Assembly (NCBI GenBank): GCA_963716145.1
Contig: OY970292.1
Coordinates: 332,951 to 396,950 of the forward strand
Reading direction: 5' to 3'
DNA from: Candidatus Levyibacteriota bacterium
GTDB lineage: Bacteria > Patescibacteriota > Microgenomatia > Levybacterales > UBA12049
DNA length: 64,000 nucleotides
Made by a program: the position numbers and the translations under genes. The notes beneath the pieces are model-generated. The model was given only the letters and a program-made list of their open reading frames with translations. It did no database searches and was not told the origin of the DNA. Below, piece by piece: positions 12,285-54,901 of the stretch (within the stretch, counting starts at the first letter, position 1; the number at the start of each line of letters is the position of its first letter).

Positions 12285-13793
12285 TTATCTAACTACCCAT
12301 ACAGTCTCCATTGAATTATCTCTTGCAGAAATATGTACGTTAGGATAGCTTTTTAGTTTTATGTAATACTCAACGATCTCTTTGGTAAATTCTTCACCTT
12401 TTATTGTTGTAGGTATTCCCGGAGGAAATGGCGTTATATACTCAGCAGCTATTCTCCCTACGGCTTTGCTCAATGGGACTCTCTCAATCTGATACATCAA
12501 TAATTTTGTGACATCACTTAACTCTAAAATTCTGGGAATATCGGTTGGAATTTTGAGATTAAATTTTGCTGCTATTTTTCCCCTCTTTGGAATTTGCACT
12601 ATTTGCTCAAAAGCATTTACTGTAACTTGAACGTCATTCAATGTCGCGCTGAATGGGACCAAAAGCAAAACTGTTCCTATATTGTATTCCTCTACGATGA
12701 TTTTATATTTTCTCTCAAGAAGTTTTGCTACTTCATACCCATTAAAGCCTGCTTTAGCAACATCCACAATAACCTTTGTTTCATCTCGTTCATAAACCGG
12801 AGGGTGCTCTCTCTTCAACTGAGCGGTACCAACAACCTCAAGTCCGTCTATGCGGCTTATTTCCTCGGCTAGGCGCTTGGCAACCATAAGCATGTGATCC
12901 AATTTCTTTTTACCTTTTTTCTCCATCATTTCTCGTGCGGCGTCCAGAGAAGCAAGAAGTATATATGATGGACTACTTGTTCCCAAACTTCGGAAAGAGT
13001 CCATCAGCAAGTCCGCGTTTATTTTGCCATCTTTCCAATGAATCATTCCCGATTGCTGAAGAGAACCTCCTTGTTTGTGAGTGCTTTGTACGCATATATC
13101 TGCTCCTGCGTTCATGGCTGATGTAGGCAATTTGTCTGAGAAATGCAAGTGAGAACCCCACGCCTCATCTACAAATACTATTAATTCCGGATATTTTTTC
13201 CGTATGGTGGAAATGATTTTTTTTAAGTTTACAGACATTCCCTCGTATGTGGGATTTATAAGAAGTAGGACTTGAGGTTTTGTTTTGGCAATTGCCTCAT
13301 ATATTTCCTTTTCCGCATTTGGAAGGAACAATTGACGCTTTTGATCAATATGAGGTTTAAGAAAAATGAGATTTATACCATAGTCTTCACAAGCTGCCAC
13401 TATAGATCTATGTACGTTTCTCCCCGCTAACACTCTAAGGTTGGGAATTTGCTTGCTTAATGCCCGTAAAACCATAAAATTACTGCCTGTTGTACCGTTT
13501 ACAGAAAAAAGAGTATGATCAGCTCCATAAGCTTTTGCCGCATGATCATAGATCCTTTTAAATATACCGGACGGTTCAGATGGATATCCCAATGATTCAT
13601 AAGAAATAGAAATATCACTTGCGTACGGATTTTTTACTCGCGAGGACAGCGAATCAATTGAAGGAGTGCACCAGCGGATTGCTTTGTGCGTTTTATGATT
13701 GAGGGCATGTGTTAGGTGAGATCTCGCAGGTCTTATTTTTGCTTTACCTATATTTAGTGAAACTGCGGATAATAAATTTTTTTTAATTATCAT
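12285..13793 (-). CDS. PLP-dependent Orn/Lys/Arg decarboxylase, fold I (SpeA-like, Bacillus type)
   Basis: STHKQGGSLQQSGM carries the PLP-lysine motif SxHK of the OKR_DC_1 family. About 500 aa. Confidence 0.7.
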   Translation of the reverse strand: MIIKKNLLSAVSLNIGKAKIRPARSHLTHALNHKTHKAIRWCTPSIDSLSSRVKNPYASDISISYESLGYPSEPSGIFKRIYDHAAKAYGADHTLFSVNGTTGSNFMVLRALSKQIPNLRVLAGRNVHRSIVAACEDYGINLIFLKPHIDQKRQLFLPNAEKEIYEAIAKTKPQVLLLINPTYEGMSVNLKKIISTIRKKYPELIVFVDEAWGSHLHFSDKLPTSAMNAGADICVQSTHKQGGSLQQSGMIHWKDGKINADLLMDSFRSLGTSSPSYILLASLDAAREMMEKKGKKKLDHMLMVAKRLAEEISRIDGLEVVGTAQLKREHPPVYERDETKVIVDVAKAGFNGYEVAKLLERKYKIIVEEYNIGTVLLLVPFSATLNDVQVTVNAFEQIVQIPKRGKIAAKFNLKIPTDIPRILELSDVTKLLMYQIERVPLSKAVGRIAAEYITPFPPGIPTTIKGEEFTKEIVEYYIKLKSYPNVHISARDNSMETVWVVR

Positions 13794-28352: not shown

Positions 28353-30892
28353 ATGGCACAAATAGGTAAATTACAAGAAACAAATATCTCGTCTGAGATG
28401 AAGAAATCGTATCTGAATTATGCGATGTCTGTCATCGTCGCGCGCGCCCTTCCCGATGTGCGTGATGGACTCAAGCCCGTTCACCGCAGAATTCTCTACG
28501 CGATGAATGAAATGGGCCTTGGCCCGACAGGTAAATTCCTCAAATCCGCCCGTATCGTCGGTGAGACCATGGGAAAATACCATCCGCATGGAAATATAGC
28601 AATTTATGATTCTTTGGTGCGTCTTGCGCAGGATTTTTCGATGCGCTATCCGCTCATTCTAGGGCAGGGGAATTTCGGATCAATTGATGGTGATCCACCG
28701 GCAGCGGATCGTTATACCGAAGCCAAGCTCCAACATATCACTATGGAGATGCTTTATGATTTGGACAAAGAGACAGTTGATTTCGGCCCAATTATGACGG
28801 CTCTTTCCAGGAACCGCTCTATCTTCCGGCCAAACTCCCAAACCTACTTTTGATGGGGGCTGAGGGAATTGCCGTAGGTATGGCAACCAAAATCCCGCCT
28901 CACAATCTCGGAGAAGTAATTGATGCAATCACATACCTTATTGGTAAATCCAAAATAGAGGTGTTAAAAGAGAACGAACCAAAGGCTGTTGATCCCAAAG
29001 ACCCCAACGCGAAAGCAATCCCTATTCAAAGTTCTGCTGTTTCTTTACACACCGAAGTCACAATTGATGAACTGCTTGAATTCATCAAAGGACCGGACTT
29101 CCCAACAGCCGGCGCGATTTATGACCTGAGTGAGATCAAAAACGCCTACATCACGGGGCGTGGAAAAATAATAATCCGCGGAAAAGCTGAAATTGAAGAT
29201 ATAGGACAGGGTAAATCTGCAATTATCATCACTGAACTTCCATATCAGGTAAATAAAGCGCTGCTTATCGCCAGAATTGCCGATCTTGCCAAAGAGAAAA
29301 AGATTGAGGGAATTTCTGACCTTCGGGATGAGTCCGACAGACGGGGAATGCGGATTTATGTTGAGCTGAAAAGAGACGCTTTCCCCAAAAAAGTTCTCAA
29401 TAATTTATTTAAACACACGGCGATGCAGACAAGCTTTCCTGTCAACATGGTTGCTTTGGTAAATGGTACACCTCAGACTTTAAACCTCAAATTGATACTC
29501 GAAGAATACATCAAGCACCGCTACATTGTGGTCCGCAAGAGATCGGAATTTGAACTCAGACAAGCAAAAGCAAGGCTTCATATTTTGGAAGGGCTGAAAA
29601 TCGCGGTCGATCACATAGACGCGGTAATAGCTACGATCCGGGCATCCAAAGATCAGGAAGATGCAAAGCAAAACTTGATGACCAAATTCAAGCTTTCAGA
29701 ACTTCAATCCGTTGCCATTCTTGATTTGCAGCTTCGCCGACTTGCAGCGCTTGAGAGGCAGAAAATTGAAGACGAATTATTGATGATAAAAGAAACGATT
29801 GCGTATTTGGAGGATTTACTCGCACATTCTGAAAAGATTCTTGAAGTTATAAAAGGGGAAATTGTAAAACTGAAGGAAAAATACGCAGATCCGAGACGTA
29901 CCAAAGTCTACAAAGGAAAAGTAGGGGAGTTCTCAGAAGAAGATTTGATTGCAAATGAACCAACAGTTATAACTCTTACCAATACCGGATATATCAAACG
30001 CCAATCCTTAACGTCATTTCACACTCAGCACAGAGGAGGAAAAGGAATAACCGGTATGAATGTAAAAGACGAGGATGGTATTGCTCATATCCGGTCCGCA
30101 CAGACCCATGACAACATAATTTTCTTCACCAACAAAGGAAAGGCTTATCAGCTCCGCGCTTTTGAAATTGCTGAATCATCAAGGACAAGCAAAGGCTCAG
30201 CTGTGGTCAACTTGCTTAACATTGAACAGGGAGAAAAAGTTGAATCATTCCTGGTTCTTGATAAAACACTTAAATCCGGAAACATTTTCCTGACAACCAG
30301 AAATGGAACTGTTAAGAAAAGCAAATTGTCTGAATTTGAGAACATCAGAAAAAATGGCATGATCGCGATAAAACTTGACAAGGGAGACGAACTCGTCTGG
30401 AGCAATATAACCGATGGCAAAAACGAAGTGCTGATTGTTACCCGCCACGGAAAAGCAATTAAGTTTGAAGAGTCAGCAGTGCGCCCAATGGGTCGGGCAA
30501 CCAGGGGAGTGCGTGGAATCAAAATTGACTCAACAGATCAAGTGATAGGTATGGCAGTTGTATGTAAAGAAGACAAACTCAACTTCCTGGCAATCATGGA
30601 AAACGGACTTGGTAAGAAAACAGCAGTTGGTCAGTTTCCTCTCCAGGGCAGAGGTGGACAGGGAGTGAAAGTTGCCAAAGTGACACCAAAGACAGGACAA
30701 GTTGTTATTGCCCAGATTGTTCCAGACAATTGTGAGGAAGTAATAATCACCTCCAAAAAGGGACAAATTGTAAAACTTACTACCGAATCAATTCCCAAAC
30801 TCTCAAGAGACACACAGGGCGTGATCCTGATGCGCTTCTCAGATTCTAACGACAAAGTCGCCTCCGCAACTTGTATAGAAAAAGCTTCTTAA
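28353..30892 (+). CDS. gyrA: DNA gyrase subunit A. The reading frame is interrupted by a 1-nt deletion (AAA to AA) at ~28788-28791. ORF-track pieces 28353..28853 and 28850..30892 are one gene.
   Basis: Frame 0 reads ...[17 protein letters not shown]...*. Frame 2 across the same bases reads [40 protein letters not shown], which is the conserved GyrA PNYDGS...GIAVGMAT block. Active-site region and C-terminal beta-pinwheel repeats lie downstream. Confidence 0.9.
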
Positions 30893-32762: not shown

Positions 32763-32866
32763 CTTTATTTCAAATTTTATATAAATTATCAGAAGATTGG
32801 AAAAATTGGGTTTTTCTGGTATAATTTACTAAGGTTTTTGCCAAAAAACTGTACAATTAATCAAAA

Positions 32867-34474
32867 ATGCAAAAAAACAATACATACACCAAAGTCGCAT
32901 CCTACGAAGGGAAAAAGGGCGAAGTCAAAAAAGTGGTACTACTTTACTCAGGCGGTCTTGACACCTCAGTCCTTCTCAAATGGATTCAGGTAGAGTACAA
33001 AGCAGAAGTAATTGCGCTGACTATTGATATAGGTCAAACGGTTGATGACCTTGATGCAATAAAGAAAAAAGCGATTAAACTCGGGGCTATCAAAACTTTT
33101 GTAATTGACGCTAAAGACGAATTTGCAAATGAGTACATCGCAAAAGGCATAAAAGCAAATGCCAATTACCAGCACCGTTATCGTCTGGCAACTCCTTTGG
33201 GCAGACCCTTACTTGCAAAGTGGGCTGTCAAAATCGCGGCTCTCGAAGGCGCTGACGCCATAGCTCATGGGTGCACCGGTAGGGGCAACGACCAAGTCCG
33301 CATAGAGGGATCTGCCCTTGCATTAAATCCTGATATCAAAATAATTGCACCTATTAGGGAATGGAGCATGGGCAGACTCGAAGAGCTGGAGTACGCAAAA
33401 AAACATGGAATACCTGTAACTCATACAAAAGACAAACCATATTCATACGACGAAAACATGTGGGGAATTTCAGGTGAGGGAGGAGAAGTTGAAGACCCAT
33501 CTGTTATTCCACCTCTGGAAAAAATTCTTATTCTTAACAAGATTCCATCAAAGGCACCGGACAAAGAAGAAATTGTAGAATTGGAATTTGTTAAAGGGCT
33601 TCCTGTTGCATTAAATGGCAAGCAAATGAAACTTTCAGAATTGATAATGAATCTTAACAAAATTGGGGCCAAACATGGCGTCGGAACAAATATCCACATA
33701 GAAGACCGCATAATCGGTATGAAGATCCGCGATGTTTTTGAGGCACCGGCTGCCGAAATAATAATAACCGCGCATGAAAAATTGGAGCATTATGTCTGCA
33801 CCGGTATAGAAAACGAATTCAAATCGGGTGTTGATAAAAAATGGGCGCACATGTGTTATGGAGGGCTTTGGTATGATCCTTTGATGAGCGATTTGAACGC
33901 GTTTATTGAAAACGTGAACCAAAAAGTAACCGGAAAAGTAAAAATTCAACTATATAAAGGTGTAGCACAAACCGTAGCGCTTGAAACGCCCAATACTATT
34001 TTTCAGGAGAAACTCGCGACATTTATGGTCTCAGAAGGCCTTAACCAAAATGCATCCGCCGGATTTATCGAGCTTTATACACTTCCGATGAGGCTTGCCC
34101 AACGTGCTGAGAAAACAGTCCTTCTATCAATTGGTAAAAGAGCCAACAAGGTCAAACTTCTACCCGATATCAAAAAACTCTACGCAATGAAGTACAAACT
34201 TTACGCGACATATAAAACCCACAAATTCCTCAAAACCAATAAAATTGAGGCGATTGCTGTCAACAAAATTTCAAGTCCTCTTAAGCCTAATCTCGCGGAT
34301 CTTCTCAATGCCAACCGTTTTGATTTGATAATAAATATCCCGACAGGACTGAAAGCTGCGGAGACTGATGGAAAAATAATCCGTGAAAAAGCAGTCGAAC
34401 ACAATGTGCCCCTAGTCACAAGTGTCAACGTAGCAAAAGATTTTGTGAACAAATTACAAGCGGCAAAAGTGTAG
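32867..34474 (+). CDS. argG: Argininosuccinate synthase fused to a C-terminal MGS-like (CarB allosteric-type) domain
   Basis: Residues 1-~410 are ArgG, with the PP-loop LYSGGLDTS and GCTGRGNDQVRIE. Residues ~415-535 are LLSIGKRANKVKLL...KYKLYATYKTHKFLKTNKIEAIAVNKIS....FDLIINIPTG...DGKIIREKAVEHNVPLVTSVNVAKDFV, the MGS-like fold pattern of CarB C-termini. Confidence 0.8.
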   Translation: MQKNNTYTKVASYEGKKGEVKKVVLLYSGGLDTSVLLKWIQVEYKAEVIALTIDIGQTVDDLDAIKKKAIKLGAIKTFVIDAKDEFANEYIAKGIKANANYQHRYRLATPLGRPLLAKWAVKIAALEGADAIAHGCTGRGNDQVRIEGSALALNPDIKIIAPIREWSMGRLEELEYAKKHGIPVTHTKDKPYSYDENMWGISGEGGEVEDPSVIPPLEKILILNKIPSKAPDKEEIVELEFVKGLPVALNGKQMKLSELIMNLNKIGAKHGVGTNIHIEDRIIGMKIRDVFEAPAAEIIITAHEKLEHYVCTGIENEFKSGVDKKWAHMCYGGLWYDPLMSDLNAFIENVNQKVTGKVKIQLYKGVAQTVALETPNTIFQEKLATFMVSEGLNQNASAGFIELYTLPMRLAQRAEKTVLLSIGKRANKVKLLPDIKKLYAMKYKLYATYKTHKFLKTNKIEAIAVNKISSPLKPNLADLLNANRFDLIINIPTGLKAAETDGKIIREKAVEHNVPLVTSVNVAKDFVNKLQAAKV

Positions 34475-34487
34475 AAGTTTTAGAAAA

Positions 34488-35477
34488 CTAAACTAACCCC
34501 AAAGCTTTTCTCCCGTTAACGGTTGCGACCTTAACAATTTCATCAATATCAAACCACCGGTTCGCTTCCATCAAAAGCCTCAAATCATTCCAAATATTGC
34601 CATCATTCATCGGCTTAAAAATATCGTAAAGATTATCAATGCCAATTGAAACAGGTATCCCGAAATCTGTCATCTCTCCTGCAGGAGTAATCGCGTTATG
34701 AGTTGGGGTGAGGACTTCACTTCTCCAGCCATCTATCCAGGACATGGGGCAGGCAACCATCATCAATTTTGCTTTTTGCATCAATTTGTATACCCGCTCC
34801 CGCTCAGGTCTGGGATAACAATTAATTGAAATGCCGTGAATACCGACAACTTTTCCTTCCATGCCGTGTTCAATGGTTTTCCGAGCAAGCATTTCTGTTT
34901 CATGCTCAGTCGGAATATTCAATTCATCGACATGCATATGCACCATCTTATTTTGAGATTTTGCTTTCTCAAGAATTATGTCCATGTGCTCTGATTCACG
35001 GGGAGTATCTGTCTTAACAGTACTTCCTATGATATCCGCGAAATCTGCGCCGATATCAAACCACTCCCTATTTTCTTTAGTCAAAATTCCGTAAGCCGGG
35101 AGATTGATATATTTGATAATTATTTGAGACTTATACACGTCTCGTGCTTTTTCAGCGGCTTTTATTGCTTTATCTTTTACATCCGGTGTTGCGTCGATAA
35201 AAGAGACAGTTGCGACAACTCCCTGCTCGATCATCAACTCTAGGGAATTGGCGATCCTGTCATAGATCTCTGATGCAGTTGAAGATTTACGGATATCTGC
35301 GTTTGAGCCCCACTTTTGATGTCTTTTCATGTTGACCATTGTGAATTTCTCAGGAGTTATTGTGTACGCTCTATCAAAATGTGCGTGGGCGTTTACCCAG
35401 CCGCCATTCTCTTTAATCTTCTGAAGAATTATCGCTTTGAGGTCCAAATAATCAACTTTATTCGCCATTGATAACAA
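34488..35477 (-). CDS. Amidohydrolase-superfamily metal-dependent hydrolase (cytosine-deaminase-like)
   Basis: HxH metal site VNAHAHFDR. Later His and Asp ligands (MVHMHVDE ... IGIDN) are typical of the TIM-barrel amidohydrolase fold. Confidence 0.55.
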   Translation of the reverse strand: MLSMANKVDYLDLKAIILQKIKENGGWVNAHAHFDRAYTITPEKFTMVNMKRHQKWGSNADIRKSSTASEIYDRIANSLELMIEQGVVATVSFIDATPDVKDKAIKAAEKARDVYKSQIIIKYINLPAYGILTKENREWFDIGADFADIIGSTVKTDTPRESEHMDIILEKAKSQNKMVHMHVDELNIPTEHETEMLARKTIEHGMEGKVVGIHGISINCYPRPERERVYKLMQKAKLMMVACPMSWIDGWRSEVLTPTHNAITPAGEMTDFGIPVSIGIDNLYDIFKPMNDGNIWNDLRLLMEANRWFDIDEIVKVATVNGRKALGLV

Positions 35478-35533: not shown

Positions 35534-35965
35534 ATGCTCGATTGGAAAATGTTGGCACTAATTGCCCCGCTATTTATAGCAACTTATCAGGCGCTTTCTA
35601 AATTTCTCCCCAAGAATACTTCCATATATTTAATTAGTGCTTATTCTTCCTTTATTGGAATGATATTTATGCTAGGCTTACACTTGCTATTATCGAAAAA
35701 TAAAGGCTTGATTTTAAATCCCAAGACAATCTCTCTTGTTCTGGGCATAGGGTTGTTAATAAGCTTAGCAAACTTTAGTTTCATAAAAGCATTTACGTTG
35801 GGAGCACCGCAATCAATTTTCAGTTTAATTTCGTATGTCGCGCTTATTATTTATGGAATACTTTTCGGAGTACTTTTGTTTCACGAAAAATTGAGTATGC
35901 CGCAAATCTTCGGTGCTATTCTTTCTATTGTAGGAATTTTAATAATTGTCTATTACAAAAAATGA
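35534..35965 (+). CDS. Small 4-TM EamA-like membrane protein
   Basis: Four hydrophobic helices in 143 aa, resembling a single EamA half-domain. Confidence 0.45.
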   Translation: MLDWKMLALIAPLFIATYQALSKFLPKNTSIYLISAYSSFIGMIFMLGLHLLLSKNKGLILNPKTISLVLGIGLLISLANFSFIKAFTLGAPQSIFSLISYVALIIYGILFGVLLFHEKLSMPQIFGAILSIVGILIIVYYKK

Positions 35966-37072
35966 CTTATTGAGGATTTTTGTTAATAGACTGCTTAATT
36001 TCGTACGCCAAGTTGGGTTCCACATCGCGCCCGATGCCGATAAAACTGCATCCGCACCGGCTTTACGGTAATCCCAAAAATCCTGGGGTGTCAGAACTCC
36101 GCCAAAGCTAATAATTTCGTAGTTAAGTTTTTGGGTTTTACGAATTCTATTCAATTGCATTGTCATATCAAGTCCGACATCTTTGATTGCGTGTCCTGAC
36201 AAGCCAGCCTTCAGCCTACCTTCACCTGGTAAAAGTTGTTTTCCGAAATCATCCAAAACAGGAGATGCCAAAGTATTTATGGAGCTAACAACCGATACAT
36301 ATTGATCAATTGACCCAACTATGTCAACCAAAAGTTCGTTTTGCAAATGGGAGAAATACCCAAATTTTGCAATCACCGGCGTTTTGCCCACAGCTTCCTT
36401 GACCAATTTGCAAATTGCAACTACAGCTTCTTTGTTATAGCAAACAACACCCTCAGTAGCTACATTGGGACAAGAAAGATTAATTTCGATAGCTTTGGCA
36501 CCGCTTTTTACGGCAAGCTCTGCTGTATGAGCAAAATCTTTGTAGTAATCCATTTCTGAAAAACCTGGCTGAATAGTACCGACAATGCTGGTAATTAATA
36601 ATCCGCCTTTTGGAACATTCTGATTGGCAATTTTAGCATCCGGGATCCAGTATTCCGGATCTATCGAATTATTACCAAACGAATTTACGATCGTCAGCTG
36701 ATTGTAATCGCTAAATTCTGTTTGAGTACGGCTGGGTAATTCTTCAAAATTGTGGTCTACTGAAATTTTACCCGCCACAACATGTACGACATTACTCATT
36801 TGGTTGGGTGCAAAGTGCACGCTACGCCGGGTCTTGGTGGTAACAATATCATACCCGTTGTCGAACATTGTTTTTATGTATTGACTATCAATACCTGTTG
36901 GGCATGACGCCGATCCAAAAGGAGAATTAACTTTGAAACCAAGAATCTGGTAGTCACCTTGAGGATTGGGCGCGGTTATTGTAGCTTTATAATCTTTATT
37001 TGGTCCGTTTTTGACATTATCGTCATAACTTTTGTGAATATCATAAATTGGAACGTATTTCGCCGTGACCAT
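35939..37072 (-). CDS. pyrD: Dihydroorotate dehydrogenase-family flavoprotein (PyrD-like), with an N-terminal extension
   Basis: AIEINLSCPN is the DHO_dh signature. Its TIM-barrel is FMN-binding. ...GVLTPQDFWDYRKAGADAVLSASGAM is the C-terminal FMN phosphate-binding region. Confidence 0.6.
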   Translation of the reverse strand: MVTAKYVPIYDIHKSYDDNVKNGPNKDYKATITAPNPQGDYQILGFKVNSPFGSASCPTGIDSQYIKTMFDNGYDIVTTKTRRSVHFAPNQMSNVVHVVAGKISVDHNFEELPSRTQTEFSDYNQLTIVNSFGNNSIDPEYWIPDAKIANQNVPKGGLLITSIVGTIQPGFSEMDYYKDFAHTAELAVKSGAKAIEINLSCPNVATEGVVCYNKEAVVAICKLVKEAVGKTPVIAKFGYFSHLQNELLVDIVGSIDQYVSVVSSINTLASPVLDDFGKQLLPGEGRLKAGLSGHAIKDVGLDMTMQLNRIRKTQKLNYEIISFGGVLTPQDFWDYRKAGADAVLSASGAMWNPTWRTKLSSLLTKILNKSFFVIDNY

Positions 37073-37115: not shown

Positions 37116-37715
37116 ATGAAATATAAAATTGGAATTTTTGGATCTGCATTTAACGAAAACGAAAAAACAATAGAACTCGCCAAAAAGTTGGGAAGCGTAT
37201 TGGGTGATGAGAAGGTAATTATTATAACAGGTGCCTGTGCAGGAATGCCGGATATAATAGCAAATGAAGCCGCAAAAAAAGGAGCAGAAATATGGGGCTT
37301 TGCATCCACCAGAAATGAGGAGGAATTAAAAACTCAATATGCAGAAGGCAATTTCTCAGCATACACTAAAATTTTCTACATTCCACAAAACTTTAGGGAA
37401 CTATTTTTTATTGAAAAAGACGCAGTTTTTGGTGTCCAGAAACCATCGCTTCAGAAATACCGCAACGTAATATCAACTGCCAATTGCGATGGGGCGATAA
37501 TCATATCCGGACGTTGGGGATCGCTTAATGAATTTACAAACCTTTTCGATATGGGTAAAGTCATTGGGGTTCTGACTGGGACAGGGGGGATTGCTGATGA
37601 GTTAGAAAACCTCAGTAAAAAAATTAATAAGCCTAGCGTTGCAAAAGTATTTTTTGACAATGATCCCGAAAAATTGGTAGAGAAAGTACTTGAAGAATTG
37701 GAAAAAAGAAGTTAA
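37116..37715 (+). CDS. LOG-family / TIGR00725-type Rossmann-fold nucleotide-binding protein (putative nucleotide phosphoribohydrolase)
   Basis: IGIFGSA....IITGACAGMPD...AIIISGRWGSLNEF matches the LOG family's GxGxxG-like region and its PGGxGTxxE-like motif. Confidence 0.5.
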   Translation: MKYKIGIFGSAFNENEKTIELAKKLGSVLGDEKVIIITGACAGMPDIIANEAAKKGAEIWGFASTRNEEELKTQYAEGNFSAYTKIFYIPQNFRELFFIEKDAVFGVQKPSLQKYRNVISTANCDGAIIISGRWGSLNEFTNLFDMGKVIGVLTGTGGIADELENLSKKINKPSVAKVFFDNDPEKLVEKVLEELEKRS

Positions 37716-37725
37716 ACTAACAGAC

Positions 37726-38546
37726 ATGGATTTTAATCAAAAATTAGACTCAACAATTCAAAAAAACAACTCTCTCCTTTGCGTCGGACTTGATCCGGAT
37801 TTTGAAAAACTTCCCGAATTTATTAAAAAGAAAGAAAACCCACAATTTGAATTTAATAAAGCTATTATTGACAGCACAAACGATTTAGCCTGCATTTATA
37901 AAAAAAATCCTGCGTTTTATGAAGCAAAAGGGGATGGGGGAGTGAGGGAGCTGAAAATGACCTGTGACTACATCAGGAAAACCTATCCTAATATCCCAGT
38001 TCTTGTTGATGCAAAGAGAGGGGATATAGGAAATTCTAATTACGGGTATGTTCAGTATGCATTTGATTATTTGCAAGCTGATGCGATGACTGTCATGCCA
38101 TATCTGGGAATAGAGTCACTTTCTCCTTATTTTGAAAGGGAGGGAAAGGGAATAGTTGTCGGCTGTCATTCATCAAATCCTGGAGCTGCAGAATTTCAGG
38201 AGTTATTAATTGACGGCAAACCGCTTTATGAAATAGTTGCAGAAGAGCTGATAAAGCAACATGGTGATAATCCCAACTGTATGATATTTATGGGAGCAAC
38301 TTACCCCGAACAGCTTACAAGTATAAGAAAAGTTATCGGCGATATGACTATTTTGGCCCAGGCGTCGGAGCACAGGGCGCAAGTGTGGAGATGTTTGTCA
38401 AATCAGGTATGAATTCCAAAAATGCAGGACTAATAATTAATGCGTCCAGAAGTGTTATATTCGCATCAACTGGTGAAGATTTTGCCGAGAAAGCACGGGA
38501 AGAAGCAACAAAACTTAGAGACGAAATCAATAAATATCGTGTATAA
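37726..38546 (+). CDS. pyrF: Orotidine-5'-phosphate decarboxylase, type 2. The reading frame is interrupted by a 1-nt deletion in a C-run near 38357-38359.
   Basis: MDFNQKLDSTIQKNNSLLCVGLDPD is the type-2 PyrF N-terminus. The ORF ends ILAQASEHRAQVWRC*. The alternate frame reads ...PGVGAQGASVEMFVKSGMNSKNAGLIINASRSVIFASTGEDFAEKAREEATKLRDEINKYRV*, the expected C-terminus. Confidence 0.75.
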
Positions 38547-38553
38547 TAATATT

Positions 38554-39213
38554 ATGAATGACGAAGTCGTAGATTTATTAAAAAAATCAAACGGGATCTT
38601 TACGGGACACTTTATATATACTTCGGGCAAACACGCTTCCCGGTATTTAAATAAAATGTCAATCTTCTTACATCCAATTTATGCATCGCAAATGGGTAAA
38701 TTATTCGCAGATAAGTATAAGGATGCAGAGATTGATATTGTTGTTGCTCCGGCAATGGGCGGAATAATTCTCGGGCAATGGACTGCTTATCATTTATCAA
38801 AACTTAAAAATAGAGATATATTAAGTACCTACACTGAAAAAGATAAGGGAAGTTTTTCGTCAGCCGCCGAAAGCAATCATATATTCACCAAGGGGAATGA
38901 AAAATATGTAACGGGAAAAAATGTTCTGATCGTTGAGGATATTGTCACTACCGGAATTTCAATCAAAAAAGTCGTAAAAGCCGTAAAAGATGCAGGTGGT
39001 AAGATAGTTGAAGCATGCTCGATGGCAAACATTAATCCCGATCCTGCGTCCATAAACGATGAACTTGTCGGAGCGAAATTCTCAAGCCTTGCCGAGCTTC
39101 CGGTTGTTCTGTACGACGATGGCAACTGTGAGCTTTGCGACAAGAATGTTCCAATTAATACCAACCTCGGCCACGGCAAAAAATACCTTGAAGAAAAAGC
39201 AAAGAAAATATGA
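38554..39213 (+). CDS. pyrE: Orotate phosphoribosyltransferase-like type I PRTase (PyrE)
   Basis: PRPP-binding motif VLIVEDIVTTGISI. N-terminal GHFIYTSGKHASRY. Start set at MNDEVV, after the pyrF stop. Confidence 0.65.
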   Translation: MNDEVVDLLKKSNGIFTGHFIYTSGKHASRYLNKMSIFLHPIYASQMGKLFADKYKDAEIDIVVAPAMGGIILGQWTAYHLSKLKNRDILSTYTEKDKGSFSSAAESNHIFTKGNEKYVTGKNVLIVEDIVTTGISIKKVVKAVKDAGGKIVEACSMANINPDPASINDELVGAKFSSLAELPVVLYDDGNCELCDKNVPINTNLGHGKKYLEEKAKKI

Positions 39214-52175: not shown

Positions 52176-54647
52176 TTATTGTTCGCTCGGCCCAGGGGAT
52201 TGATGTTGTTTGAAGAATTTCTCAACTTCAACTGCGTTCTCTTTTTTTGTAAAAAATTCAATGGGCTCAGCAAATCTAGAAAATAGATGTCCCCCGCTAT
52301 ATCTTTTCACTATTTCATCCCAATGGTTTTTCAAAAAATCCCACGCCAAATACTTACCATTTGAATTTGCAAAAATAAAATATATAGCTTTATATGAATC
52401 TTGCGTACGGACATTAGAGGAAAAACCAAAATCCAAAGTTTTTTTTAAGAGATTTTTTTGTTTAAAAATACAAAGCGCTTTAAAAATACGGTCCTTTTCT
52501 TCCTGTAGAGCTGACTTATTATAGAGACTTAATAGCTCTGAGTATGTTTTATCATCTCCATACTTTGCAACAATTGAGTATACCACTCCCCTTAAATCTG
52601 ATTCTATTTGCACTTTTCCATTAAGAAAATTTTTAAACATACTTTGAGCAGTACTTATTGCACTAGGATCACCATATTTTCCAAGACTCGATAAGATTAC
52701 GCTTCTTAATAATGTCTGAGAATGAGATTCCTGCGTCTTTTTTTCCCAGCCGACTTTATCACCAATATTTTTTAAAATATTTAAAGCATAATCTTCAAAT
52801 AATTGGTACTCTTTTTCCTCTGATAGAAGATTGCACAATTTTGCTAGCTGGGTTACAATCTCATACCATACGATATAACTTTTTTCGTTCTTAAACGATA
52901 AATAGGCATTGAATGCTTGCACTGTTGGTATTTTACCGGCTTCAGCTAAAACCAGAATATCCCTTATAATTCCAAATCTATCTATTACGGATAATTCTTC
53001 TTTTTCAATAGCTTTTAATAAACTGCGTAGATCGTTCTCCGAGTACCCTACCCTAACTAGACTTGTCTCACCGCTGTTTAACTTAACCCATTTAGTCTTT
53101 CTTTTCTCTGGTAAAATCAATCTTTTTTTCTCCATCAAATGATATTCTGGTTTCTTATCAGAATTCGTTTTGACACTAACTGGAATTTTCCACACACTAT
53201 TGTCTGTTGAATTTTTTTGTGAATGAAAACTTGAAAAAAATCTCGATTGGGAAAGAATCAGCACGTCTTTTCTGCTGTCAAGCATAACCAGCGGATACCC
53301 TGCTGCTTGTGTCCAATTTTTCATAATTGCCTCAACTGGTTTTCCGGAAGCCTCATTAAGTGCTTTCCAAAGATCAGACGTAGATGCATTGCTATACGAA
53401 TGTTTCTTAAGATAACCTTGTAAGCCTTTCCTAAATACATCCTCCCCCAAATACTCTGCGAGCATTCTTATTATTGACGCTCCTTTTGAGTAACTCACTG
53501 CATCAAATATCTCACTAATCTCCGCCGGGTTTTGCACCTCTATTTCAATTGGGTGCGTATTTTCTAATCCATCAAGCTCTAGTGCTCTTGCATGATCCAT
53601 ATTTACAAACTGAGTCCATATATCCCACTGCGGAAAAATATGATCAACTGCAAGATATTCTATATATGATGCAAATCCTTCATTAAGCCATAAATGTGTC
53701 CACCATTCCATTGTCACCAAATTTCCAAACCACTGATGGGCGAATTCATGCGCTATAACGAGTGCTACCCATTGTTTATTTATTGTTGCTGTATGCTCCT
53801 CATCAACAAGAAGCGCGGTTTCCCTGTATGTTACTGCCCCCCAGTTCTCCATCGCGCCAGCAGCAAAATCAGGGATCGCTATTAAGTCAATAACCGGAAG
53901 AGGATATGCAATTTTGAAGTAGTCCGAAAAGAAGGAGATTGTTTTTACCGCAACATCCAGTGCAAATTCTGCTTGCTTTTTCTTTCCGGCTGTTACAAAC
54001 ACACGAACAACAGTACCCTCTTTTGTCTTTTTTTCTATGTGTTCAAATTTTCCAACGATAAAAGCCAAAAGATAGGTAGACATTTTTGGAGTTGGTTTAA
54101 AACTAACAATCTTGTATCCCGCGCTGTGCTCCTTAACTTCTGTCTCAATTGTATTTGAAATCGCTGTGTGGTCATCTGGGATAATTAGATTGATGTGAAA
54201 TACTGCTTTTTTCGCAGGTTCATCAAATGATGGGAAAGCGCGTCTGGCATCTGTTGATTCAAATTGTGTAACTGCAATTGTCTGCTCTTTTCCATCAATA
54301 TGATACTTGCTTCTATAAAAACCTCTCATTTTGTCATTTAAAACTCCTTTAAACTTAAGAGAGAGTTTTCCAATACCCTTTGGCAGTTGTTTTGGAAAAA
54401 TAATTGTTGCTGTCTCTGTTTTCTTATCAAAAGTCAGACTGCCTTTAATAGAATTATTGTAAATTACCTCTGGAATCTCAAGTTCGTCTGCGTGAATTCT
54501 AATAGTGTCGGTAGGTATTCTTAGATCAACTATAATCTTTTCTTCTCCCGTAAAGGTAAAGGCAGTAAGGTCGGGGTGAATAGTTATAAAATATTCTTTT
54601 GGAATAACGTTTTCAGATAAACGGACATTTTTGCTATTTTTTGTCAT
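52176..54647 (-). CDS. pepN: Aminopeptidase N (M1 family). Start re-set to MTKNSKNV. The ORF-track start at 54899 reads through the antisense of a tRNA.
   Basis: Exopeptidase motif AAGAMENWGAV. Zinc site HEFAHQWFGN...(18)...E. Confidence 0.85.
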   Translation of the reverse strand: MTKNSKNVRLSENVIPKEYFITIHPDLTAFTFTGEEKIIVDLRIPTDTIRIHADELEIPEVIYNNSIKGSLTFDKKTETATIIFPKQLPKGIGKLSLKFKGVLNDKMRGFYRSKYHIDGKEQTIAVTQFESTDARRAFPSFDEPAKKAVFHINLIIPDDHTAISNTIETEVKEHSAGYKIVSFKPTPKMSTYLLAFIVGKFEHIEKKTKEGTVVRVFVTAGKKKQAEFALDVAVKTISFFSDYFKIAYPLPVIDLIAIPDFAAGAMENWGAVTYRETALLVDEEHTATINKQWVALVIAHEFAHQWFGNLVTMEWWTHLWLNEGFASYIEYLAVDHIFPQWDIWTQFVNMDHARALELDGLENTHPIEIEVQNPAEISEIFDAVSYSKGASIIRMLAEYLGEDVFRKGLQGYLKKHSYSNASTSDLWKALNEASGKPVEAIMKNWTQAAGYPLVMLDSRKDVLILSQSRFFSSFHSQKNSTDNSVWKIPVSVKTNSDKKPEYHLMEKKRLILPEKRKTKWVKLNSGETSLVRVGYSENDLRSLLKAIEKEELSVIDRFGIIRDILVLAEAGKIPTVQAFNAYLSFKNEKSYIVWYEIVTQLAKLCNLLSEEKEYQLFEDYALNILKNIGDKVGWEKKTQESHSQTLLRSVILSSLGKYGDPSAISTAQSMFKNFLNGKVQIESDLRGVVYSIVAKYGDDKTYSELLSLYNKSALQEEKDRIFKALCIFKQKNLLKKTLDFGFSSNVRTQDSYKAIYFIFANSNGKYLAWDFLKNHWDEIVKRYSGGHLFSRFAEPIEFFTKKENAVEVEKFFKQHQSPGPSEQ

Positions 54648-54808
54648 AAAATTGCGGAAATGGGCGCAAAAAGTATATAATATGTGAGCTCGAAATACAA
54701 GGTAAGAAATAATCCCTTGCGCAAAATGCAAAGCGTTTTGAAGAGGGGCAACCGATGAAAAGCTGAATCCGCCAGCTGGCGGAGAAAGCTGCAATCGAGT
54801 TGCGACGA

Positions 54809-54894
54809 GCCGAGATGGCGGAATGGTATACGCGGTAGTCTCAAAAACTACTAGTTGCAAGGCTATGGGGGTTCGACTCCCCCTCTCGGCACCA
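54809..54894 (+). tRNA. tRNA-Leu (anticodon CAA), class II with long variable arm. CCA encoded.
   Basis: Acceptor GCCGAGA/UCUCGGC. Anticodon stem GUAGU/ACUAC with loop CUCAAAA. Long variable arm. T-arm GGGGG-UUCGACU-CCCCC. Discriminator A followed by CCA. Confidence 0.85.
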
Positions 54895-54901
54895 CACAAA
54901 T

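Follow-up and report, generated by a model that had tools for sequence, protein, structure and literature searches.

An argininosuccinate synthase fused to a CarB-type regulatory domain in pyrimidine gene clusters of Patescibacteria

Why should an argininosuccinate synthase carry the regulatory domain of carbamoyl-phosphate synthetase (CPS)? The question is raised by one gene in a 64,000-nucleotide stretch of DNA from a Candidatus Levyibacteriota bacterium (contig OY970292.1 of assembly GCA_963716145.1, positions 332,951 to 396,950), called here the window, which means the whole stretch that was analysed. The gene encodes ArgG joined at its C-terminus to an MGS-like domain of the kind that ends CarB. 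Across related genomes the fusion lies among genes for the synthesis of uridine monophosphate (UMP), and at one operon site it can take the place of the genes for the first pyrimidine enzymes. The reading weighed below is that ArgG-MGS is a nucleotide-regulated first enzyme of a dihydroorotate route that does not use carbamoyl phosphate; taken with both its mechanism and its feedback control, this reading is judged to fall just short of an even call.

The fusion protein and its family

The fusion gene and its parts all lie on the forward strand, and the coordinates of the open reading frame (ORF) include the stop codon:

32797..32825, + strand: promoter-like site 5' of the fusion gene (TTGGAA, 17-nucleotide spacer, TATAAT)
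32867..34474, + strand: ArgG-MGS fusion ORF, complete, 535 amino acids
32930..33415, + strand: ArgG N-terminal nucleotide-binding (HUP) domain with the SGGLDTS ATP-pyrophosphatase loop (residues 22-183; PF00764)
33440..34096, + strand: ArgG C-terminal synthase domain (residues 192-410; PF20979)
34115..34471, + strand: CarB-type MGS-like domain (residues 417-535; PF02142)

The ORF is read in one frame, with neither a stop nor a frame change at the ArgG/MGS junction. Pfam assigns Arginosuc_synth to residues 22-183 (E 2.5e-64), Arginosuc_syn_C to residues 192-410 (E 1.9e-65) and MGS (PF02142) to residues 432-518 (E 5.6e-18, 65.3 bits against a gathering score of 24.1), and two NCBIfam models, the argG equivalog NF001770 (499.5 bits, cut-off 334) and TIGR00032 (455.1 bits, cut-off 268.2), both span residues 19-415. 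Residues 414-534 correspond to positions 933-1050 of the NCBIfam CarB model (E 3.8e-15). The protein is not a CarB, as the match to CarB is confined to the last ~120 residues and the ATP-grasp units and oligomerisation domain are missing. No MgsA family is found among the NCBIfam matches of the fusion at E <= 0.1; the best relatives are the allosteric domains of CarB and CPS1. The closest solved relatives of the last 122 residues by sequence are the human CPS1 allosteric domain (2YVQ, E 1.2e-7) and residues 946-1045 of Escherichia coli CarB, and the E. coli CarB structure 1CE8 also matches the MGS part. The promoter-like site, detected in a consensus scan, agrees with the consensus at 10 of 12 positions and has TG before the -10 hexamer, the assignment being one of consensus match alone.

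An AlphaFold2 model of the fusion has a mean predicted local distance difference test score (pLDDT) of 81.4, with values of ~85-94 in the MGS domain. Foldseek aligns this model to ArgG structures with template modelling (TM) scores of 0.84-0.86 relative to the target (7K5Z at E 7e-42), and the MGS part to 2YVQ with a TM score of 0.74 and a root-mean-square deviation of 2.2 A over 115 columns; CarB and CPS1 chains match as well.

These results bear out much of what the initial annotation had read from the letters of the ORF. It had proposed that the last ~120 residues form a CarB-type MGS-like domain and had given a residue pattern, which fits the sequence; the Pfam score, the CarB model and the 2YVQ fold agree with the assignment. 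The two Pfam families it expected, PF00764 and PF02142, are both present on the ORF, and its suggestion of a structural check is answered by a model that confirms the MGS fold and by a sequence alignment in which the residues of the effector pocket are conserved. Where it spoke of a graft of one domain onto one enzyme, the data describe a conserved family. The fusion is encoded in at least 173 species-level genomes, almost all of them Patescibacteria, in a scan that took one genome per species and required the C-terminal module to be joined to ArgG. The best 120 database matches (71-100% identity, 532-562 residues) all have the same three domains. Record titles of these genomes include Levyibacteriota, Roizmanbacteria, Microgenomates, Saccharimonadales/Saccharibacteria, Paceibacterota and 'Patescibacteria group'. 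Many metagenome-assembled genomes with the fusion are titled 'uncultured Gammaproteobacteria' (for example, loci L008, L016 and L018-L023) and single ones 'Chlamydiae', 'Limisphaerales' or 'Sulfotelmatobacter'; the gene content of these genomes is the same, and the labels are probably wrong.

A frameshift or mis-assembly might have joined argG to a separate downstream MGS gene, and the window does contain single-base indels elsewhere, in pyrF, in a PyrD-like gene and probably in gyrA. The initial annotation had named such a frameshift, or the lack of an MGS match, as grounds for abandoning its claim. The MGS match is well above its cut-off, a short-read assembly of the same organism (L001) has a fusion ORF identical to the window copy, hundreds of proteins from varied sources share the architecture, and the short linker is conserved; the artefact is already refuted and its probability is practically nil. 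The ArgG-MGS fusion is thereby confirmed as a real, conserved Patescibacterial protein family. Its members are routinely annotated as plain 'argininosuccinate synthase'. A full-text literature search found no description of ArgG-MGS, of ArgG in pyrimidine clusters, of the pathway considered below or of Patescibacterial pyrimidine gaps at the gene level, in line with the initial annotation, which was not aware of the architecture as a described one.

Gene context and the CarAB-PyrB-PyrC slot

In related Patescibacteria, atpAGDC and a gene for a CBS-domain protein are followed by a common operon. Three arrangements occur at this one site:

Canonical (L088, L089, L090): CarA-CarB-PyrB-PyrC-PyrD-PyrF-PyrE-Upp(-PyrG)
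Both modules (L019, L023): ArgG-MGS-amidohydrolase-CarA-CarB-PyrB-PyrC-PyrD
Replaced (L020, L022): ArgG-MGS-amidohydrolase-PyrD-PyrF-PyrE-Upp

The flanking proteins and PyrD, PyrF, PyrE, Upp and PyrG are 50-89% identical between these operons, and extra genes are interspersed in some of the canonical loci. ArgG-MGS and the amidohydrolase stand exactly where CarAB-PyrB-PyrC stand in relatives, which is the strongest single result of this analysis. Successive genes overlap by 4 nucleotides in the replaced operon of L022. In the loci with both modules, PyrB exceeds its cut-off at 304 bits, and PyrC scores 256 bits. None of the three canonical operons includes the amidohydrolase, even though Upp is present in each; the enzyme tracks ArgG-MGS and not Upp. 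A search with PyrB gave a weak negative: among the listed matches, all of which are at least 62% identical to the query, none lies on a contig whose length equals that of a fusion-bearing contig.

The wider context was surveyed by calling and clustering ORFs in 83 loci, with flanks of up to 10 kb; 41 of these loci have at least 6 kb on both sides and are referred to as full-flank loci. The most constant partner is the amidohydrolase, which is near the fusion in 35 of the 41. At least one of PyrD, PyrF and PyrE is near the fusion in 33, an ArgZ/DDAH-like protein of ~269 residues (GME269) in 19 and phosphoribosyl pyrophosphate synthase in 15. PyrB-type genes (3/41), ArgH (2/41) and CarB (1/41) are rare there; over the full set, ArgH occurs within 10 kb in 5 of the 83 loci. 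Immediately after the fusion comes the amidohydrolase gene in 29 of the 83 loci and the GME269 gene in 27. The median gap is -1 nucleotide to a co-directional amidohydrolase (23 loci) and 5 nucleotides to GME269 (27 loci), and in many loci the amidohydrolase gene is co-transcribed with that of the fusion. Amidohydrolase and PyrD-like enzyme are joined in single fusion proteins in L021 and L057. Since the flanks outside the core differ between lineages, selection, and not mere inheritance, maintains the linkage. The fusion gene is part of a UMP-synthesis cluster and is usually its first gene.

This context departs from that offered by the initial annotation, which had seen arginine and polyamine genes clustering loosely around the fusion. 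The conserved neighbours are pyrimidine genes (PyrD-like, PyrF, PyrE). The SpeA-like decarboxylase at 12285-13793 that it counted as a member of the cluster is an OKR_DC_1 enzyme that lies 19 kb from the fusion, surrounded by genes for type II/IV secretion, EamA and histidine-kinase proteins and separated from the fusion by unrelated genes, and the amidohydrolase at 34488-35477, which it counted with the arginine and polyamine genes, is an enzyme of the AtzC/cytosine-deaminase type. PyrD-like, PyrF and PyrE are encoded within 5 kb of the fusion in the window itself:

34488..35477, - strand: amidohydrolase, AtzC/cytosine-deaminase type (PRK06886 family; NF005365, 412 bits, above cut-off)
35534..35965, + strand: small EamA/DMT-type membrane protein (EamA Pfam match on the identical L001 gene, 3105-3536)
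35967..37072, - strand: divergent dihydroorotate-dehydrogenase-like gene (DHOdh*, PyrD-like; PF01180, E 1.3e-18)
37116..37715, + strand: LOG/SLOG cluster-4 family gene (PF18306)
37726..38546, + strand: pyrF, orotidine monophosphate decarboxylase (TIGR02127, 230 bits, above cut-off, on the L001 copy)
38554..39213, + strand: pyrE-like orotate phosphoribosyltransferase (pyrE_Therm 122.8 bits, cut-off 150; Pfam Pribosyltran)

The amidohydrolase gene is convergent with the fusion gene at a distance of 13 nucleotides. None of CarA, the CarB core, PyrB, PyrC, ArgH, ornithine transcarbamylase, DDAH or ArgZ-like/GME269 is found in the 64-kb window, and as far as these 64 kb show, the cluster is of the replaced type. 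The PyrD-like protein is an atypical form of ~370 residues with an N-terminal extension of ~125 residues; its best NCBIfam match is PyrD at 75.8 bits, below the cut-off. Relative to L001, the window lacks one base near 36014, at the 3' end of the PyrD-like gene, so that the window ORF runs on to 35939, and one base near 38356, which splits pyrF (intact in L001) and artificially extends the pyrE ORF. Window gyrA is split into two ORFs (28353-28853 and 28850-30892). These indels look like single-base assembly errors rather than pseudogenes.

Several neighbouring genes recur at other loci. Half-size EamA/DMT proteins are found in the cluster elsewhere (clusters c34 and c48, of which c48 matched EamA), and the protein could move a substrate or product of the pathway, for example ornithine, citrulline or arginine, across the membrane. 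The LOG/SLOG gene (cluster 13), which is nucleotide-monophosphate-hydrolase-like, is kept in 11 loci of the cluster, usually between the PyrD-like gene and pyrF. Some Saccharimonadia loci have two PyrD-like paralogues (L003 13425-15662), and other loci have a classical PyrD of ~306 residues, with or without a PyrK-like partner. A class-II fumarase/aspartase-like gene lies within the pyr operons of L020 (12931-14211), L088 (14625-15935) and L089 (13090-14418), and a flavoprotein of the fumarate-reductase/aspartate-oxidase type in those of L036 (4304-5944) and L088 (10942-13271), in the latter adjoined by a gene for an Fe-S (Fer2_3) subunit. Their presence suggests that aspartate supply or fumarate-linked disposal of PyrD electrons is part of the module.

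A variant cluster occurs in L026, L031, L041 and L080 (for example, L041 10441-13080), where ArgG-MGS is followed by a 456-residue amidohydrolase of the 8-oxoguanine-deaminase/TRZ-ATZ type (446 bits, below cut-off) and where no PRK06886-type amidohydrolase or PyrD-like gene lies nearby. The next genes in L026, L031 and L041 encode a 421-residue protein without a Pfam or NCBIfam match and a phosphoribosyltransferase. A family of ~400 residues without a Pfam match adjoins phosphoribosyltransferase genes in L086 (489-1691) and L031 (13680-14993), two versions of the cluster that otherwise differ, the copies being 33% identical. Elsewhere in the window, tRNA-Leu(CAA) (54809-54894, + strand) overlaps the beginning of the longest ORF called for an M1 aminopeptidase (52176-54899, - strand), the true start of which is probably further downstream.

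A candidate route from citrulline to dihydroorotate

Any role for ArgG-MGS in pyrimidine synthesis depends on what its ArgG core makes. Over residues 22-414 the fusion is ~42-44% identical to canonical ArgG of Thermus thermophilus (1J1Z) and Legionella (6XNQ/7K5Z) and has the same fold, the alignment to 1J1Z extending to residue 414. It differs from canonical ArgG in the ~120-residue MGS-like domain that follows the C-terminal helix and in the place of its gene, which is in a pyrimidine operon and not an arg operon and rarely has ArgH nearby. The SGGLDTS loop (LLYSGGLDTSV at residues 25-35) is found in 76 of 85 fusions, and some of the remaining sequences come from truncated ORF calls. Of the ligands of aspartate and citrulline, which in the human enzyme are Y87, S92, T119, N123, D124, R127, S180, S189, E270 and Y282 (numbering of UniProt P00966), the window protein keeps Y105, T137, N141, D142, R145, S193, S202 and E279, with P110 and F291 as the exceptions. 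The sole family-wide change is a Ser to Pro substitution at the position of T. thermophilus S89 (P110 in the window protein, Pro in 67 of 85 fusions), a residue that corresponds to human S92, a citrulline ligand. F291 and R139 were considered as signatures of altered specificity and rejected as minority variants (Tyr is present at position 291 in 69 of the 85). By these residues the ArgG core looks catalytically canonical, and it would convert citrulline, aspartate and ATP to argininosuccinate, AMP and pyrophosphate.

The partner amidohydrolase belongs to the subgroup of AtzC (N-isopropylammelide isopropylaminohydrolase) and CodA (cytosine deaminase). Its best matches among solved structures are AtzC (2QT3, 1e-12) and CodA (5e-12), and its HxH, H, H and D residues, presumably the metal-ligand set of the AtzC/CodA subgroup, are invariant. 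AtzC and CodA hydrolyse an exocyclic C-N bond on an oxo-substituted ring, AtzC freeing an alkylamine from a dioxo-triazine. The partner is related to them only at E ~1e-12, however, and has an NCBIfam family of its own, PRK06886, named 'hypothetical protein'. The possibility that it is a replacement dihydroorotase (DHOase) was considered and is weakened by the coexistence of a true PyrC, recognised by the DHOase model, in L019 and L023 and by its nearest relatives, which are AtzC and CodA, not DHOase.

The second partner, GME269, is most closely related to the arginine dihydrolase ArgZ/AgrE and to DDAH, with which it shares the guanidino-group-modifying fold (E ~1e-29 to ArgZ/AgrE N-terminal domains). 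It differs from them in falling below all equivalog cut-offs and in standing alone, at 246-269 residues. A C-terminal HCLT motif is retained in the GME269 sequences that were read, and its Cys is taken to be catalytic by analogy to DDAH and arginine deiminase. In L008, L009, L010, L015 and L070, the clade closest to the window, ArgG-MGS is preceded by a divergently oriented, bona fide gene of the DDAH family (for example, L010 7738-8673, E 8e-89 to DDAH_eukar). GME269 and DDAH could equally supply citrulline, because characterised hydrolases of that family make it.

These partners bear on a different proposal for the ArgG core, in which it would take another ureido substrate, for example urea, to give guanidinosuccinate, which the GME/ArgZ-like hydrolase would deiminate to carbamoyl-aspartate. 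The Ser to Pro change at a citrulline-ligand position is consistent with this, as is the translational coupling of a guanidino-modifying hydrolase in 27 loci. The remaining citrulline ligands (Y, R, S, S/T, E and Y) and the equivalog score are canonical, however, and the GME-like gene is absent from half of the loci, the window included, which leaves another ureido substrate highly improbable.

With citrulline as the substrate, ArgG-MGS and the PRK06886-type amidohydrolase, joined in many loci by the ArgZ/DDAH-like hydrolase, would constitute an unrecognised de novo entry to pyrimidines in which citrulline donates C2 and N3. This entry is put forward tentatively, as a possibility somewhat short of an even call. 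ArgG would join the aspartate amino group to the ureido carbon of citrulline, which would form the N1-C2 bond of the pyrimidine, and the amidohydrolase would convert argininosuccinate to dihydroorotate and ornithine. Argininosuccinate cyclises spontaneously to anhydrides, including a six-membered one. The most likely intermediate would be this six-membered cyclic anhydride, 2-(ornithino)-4-oxo-tetrahydropyrimidine-6-carboxylate, which is dihydroorotate with ornithine on C2, so that hydrolysis of the AtzC type would free ornithine and dihydroorotate. Dihydroorotate would then be the substrate of the next enzyme, PyrD, to which the amidohydrolase is sometimes fused, and the PyrD-like enzyme, PyrE and PyrF would carry out the remaining steps to UMP. 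The order could also differ, with the ArgZ-like GME269 or the amidohydrolase acting first to yield N-carbamoyl-aspartate. The cost would be two phosphoanhydride bonds of ATP, equal to that of CPS, and citrulline itself would probably be made from scavenged arginine.

The nearest published idea is the arginine-derived carbamoyl phosphate of Thermococcus kodakarensis, which lacks CPS and draws the pyrimidine carbamoyl unit from arginine or citrulline in an arginine synthetase pathway (PMC13260591). That route still makes carbamoyl phosphate, through ArcE and ArcB, and uses aspartate transcarbamylase (ATCase) and DHOase (PMC13260591). In contrast, the present proposal would need neither carbamoyl phosphate nor ATCase and DHOase, and ArgG would run forward.

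Several observations weigh against the proposed entry, which is inferred from gene context alone. L019 and L023 carry both the ArgG-MGS/amidohydrolase module and the CarAB-PyrB-PyrC module. In 10 loci the amidohydrolase is paired with uridine kinase, which points to salvage, and in the window clade its gene is convergent with that of ArgG-MGS and is not co-transcribed with it. No citrulline source is encoded in the window, where neither GME269 nor DDAH was found. The MGS module is also present on enzymes other than that of the first step (see below), a poor fit with simple feedback on a committed step. Residues 377-407 of the fusion, the linker, are modelled at a pLDDT below 50, so that the AlphaFold2 model is silent on communication between ArgG and the MGS domain. 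Finally, a true ArgH (318 bits, above cut-off) is adjacent to the fusion in L017, L047, L071, L079 and L081, and a preprint reports that argG and argH are co-enriched with nucleotide genes in Ca. Lutisaccharimonas (Saccharimonadia) and reads this as arginine metabolism.

The neighbouring ArgH and the preprint belong equally to the main alternative, in which ArgG-MGS is an ordinary arginine-pathway enzyme that makes argininosuccinate for ArgH and is cross-regulated with pyrimidine synthesis. Its place in the pyrimidine operon would then reflect competition of ArgG and pyrimidine synthesis for aspartate and carbamoyl groups, the MGS domain would let UMP, inosine monophosphate (IMP) or ornithine balance the fluxes, and the amidohydrolase would be an unrelated salvage enzyme of the cytosine-deaminase type. 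In mammals, ASS1 and CAD compete for aspartate. The fully canonical ArgG core agrees with this alternative, as do the source annotations that name the amidohydrolase a cytosine deaminase in some genomes and its position beside uridine kinase or, in L020 and L022, near Upp. The amidohydrolase scores far below the cut-offs of the cytosine-deaminase models, however (77 bits against 403), and is missing from the three canonical operons that all have Upp; within 10 kb of the fusion in the full-flank loci, ArgH is rare and the amidohydrolase frequent (2 and 35 of 41, respectively). An arginine-pathway role also leaves unexplained the 4-nucleotide overlaps of the ArgG-MGS and amidohydrolase genes, the amidohydrolase-PyrD-like fusion and the location of the pair in the exact CarAB-PyrB-PyrC slot of sister genomes. 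This alternative is judged unlikely, though it deserves serious consideration.

The MGS domain and its partners

If ArgG-MGS does begin a pyrimidine pathway, its MGS domain would carry the regulatory logic of CarB from the classical pathway onto the new entry enzyme. The allosteric domain of CarB (E. coli CarB 937-1073 with IMP in 1CE8; human CPS1 in 2YVQ) has the same Pfam family, fold and pocket as the MGS domain of the fusion, which differs in sitting on ArgG instead of ATP-grasp synthetase domains. The pocket residues of the window protein are S421, K428, T448, T451, K467, N490, D501, R506 and T518. The first six align with E. coli CarB S948, K954, T974, T977, K993 and N1015, which line the phosphate and ribose site for IMP and UMP, and the equivalent of CarB T1042 is also conserved. 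The K, T, T and K residues are found in all 11 ArgG-class representatives, and the pocket is invariant or nearly so across the family. Position K993 is Lys in the fusion, as in nucleotide-regulated CarB, whereas N-acetylglutamate-regulated CPS1 has Trp. A nucleotide effector site is plausible because the IMP/UMP phosphate and ribose residues are present and conserved across the family. The domain would most likely bind a pyrimidine or purine nucleoside monophosphate, with feedback of the UMP type; from the pocket residues, a pyrimidine effector is the most sensible guess. The initial annotation had suggested direct allosteric control of the citrulline-to-argininosuccinate step, perhaps by a metabolite of the pyrimidine or arginine pathway, and its pyrimidine option is a reasonable one.

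MGS domains of this kind are not limited to ArgG. An HMMER search with the C-terminal 131 residues returned 952 cluster representatives at E <= 1e-3, and besides CarB and ArgG the partners include an amidohydrolase preceded by MGS, a different amidohydrolase followed by MGS, a PyrD-like enzyme preceded by MGS, and an AsnA/AsnRS-like catalytic core followed by MGS. One protein of 1134 residues (P0144; L086 1744-5148) combines AsnA-like, MGS, PyrD-like and phosphoribosyltransferase parts and is encoded directly upstream of pyrE-like and pyrF genes. The AsnA-like class is also found in L017 (5561-7054), L077 (4469-6010) and P0155. Its core resembles class-II aminoacyl-tRNA synthetases, is nearest to AsnRS and archaeal-type asparagine synthetase A, and has no anticodon domain. 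From its sequence relationships, the AsnA-like-MGS protein is predicted to be a second aspartate-adenylating ligase tied to the pyrimidine cluster. A simple swap of this protein for ArgG-MGS was considered and set aside, as both occur together in L017 and L077. In P0131 (980 residues) and P0191 (2714 residues), the MGS query matched 13 and 10 separate stretches, respectively, and no cluster-enzyme seed matched; the two could be proteins of a repetitive kind or could contain MGS-like repeats in tandem.

Among themselves, the fused MGS modules share 39-44% identity, whereas their identity to CarB MGS domains is 29-32% in general and 25-34% for the CarB of the same genome. Because they are closer to each other than to CarB MGS, they form a subfamily of their own that has moved among the enzymes of the cluster, and recent capture of the domain from a resident CarB is rejected on the same figures. 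Since the same module is found on other cluster enzymes, its role may not be specific to ArgG.

This distribution raises the possibility that the MGS domain serves mainly for docking or oligomerisation and not for sensing an effector, a proposal about the domain that is compatible with either an arginine-pathway or a pyrimidine-entry role for ArgG. Contacts between MGS domains, like those of the allosteric domains in the CPS tetramer of E. coli, would bring ArgG, the amidohydrolase, the PyrD-like enzyme and the AsnA-like ligase together in a complex that would be a non-covalent analogue of CAD. Members of the same subfamily are attached N- or C-terminally to at least four different cluster enzymes, two MGS-bearing enzymes occur together in L017 and L077, and the modules resemble each other more than any CarB MGS, all of which would suit a docking function. 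A pure scaffold would have no need of the phosphate-pocket residues (K, T, T, K and N), however, and these are kept in the fusion classes with two exceptions, Arg at K993 in the single MGS-PyrD-like protein and Ser at T974 in one of the four amidohydrolase fusions. The conserved pocket argues that ligand binding is retained, and a mainly docking role is considered improbable. CAD and other fused multi-enzymes of pyrimidine synthesis likewise link early enzymes of the pathway physically to an MGS-type regulatory domain; the difference here is that ArgG and an AtzC/CodA-type hydrolase are present instead of CPS, ATCase and DHOase. The AsnA-like-MGS-PyrD-like-phosphoribosyltransferase and amidohydrolase-PyrD-like fusions are built on the same principle as CAD.

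As a protein, ArgG-MGS is a new combination of known parts; as a system, the cluster may represent a way into pyrimidine synthesis that is so far undescribed, and this in a very large lineage. The route to UMP in six steps is regarded as universal, and Patescibacteria (the Candidate Phyla Radiation, CPR) without CarAB, PyrB and PyrC are scored as nucleotide auxotrophs in metabolic reconstructions. The fusion carries the regulatory domain of the very enzyme that it appears to replace. If the proposed entry is correct, many Patescibacteria that are scored as pyrimidine-incomplete would be prototrophs when given arginine or citrulline, and estimates of the host dependence of these episymbionts would change, since they would need arginine or citrulline and not pyrimidines. 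The entry would also be a new biochemical solution for building the pyrimidine ring, and it would clearly illustrate how a regulatory domain can travel together with a pathway's committed step. On a conservative reading too, ArgG-MGS is a new architecture for putative allosteric control of ArgG, one that links arginine and pyrimidine metabolism in a large and poorly understood lineage.

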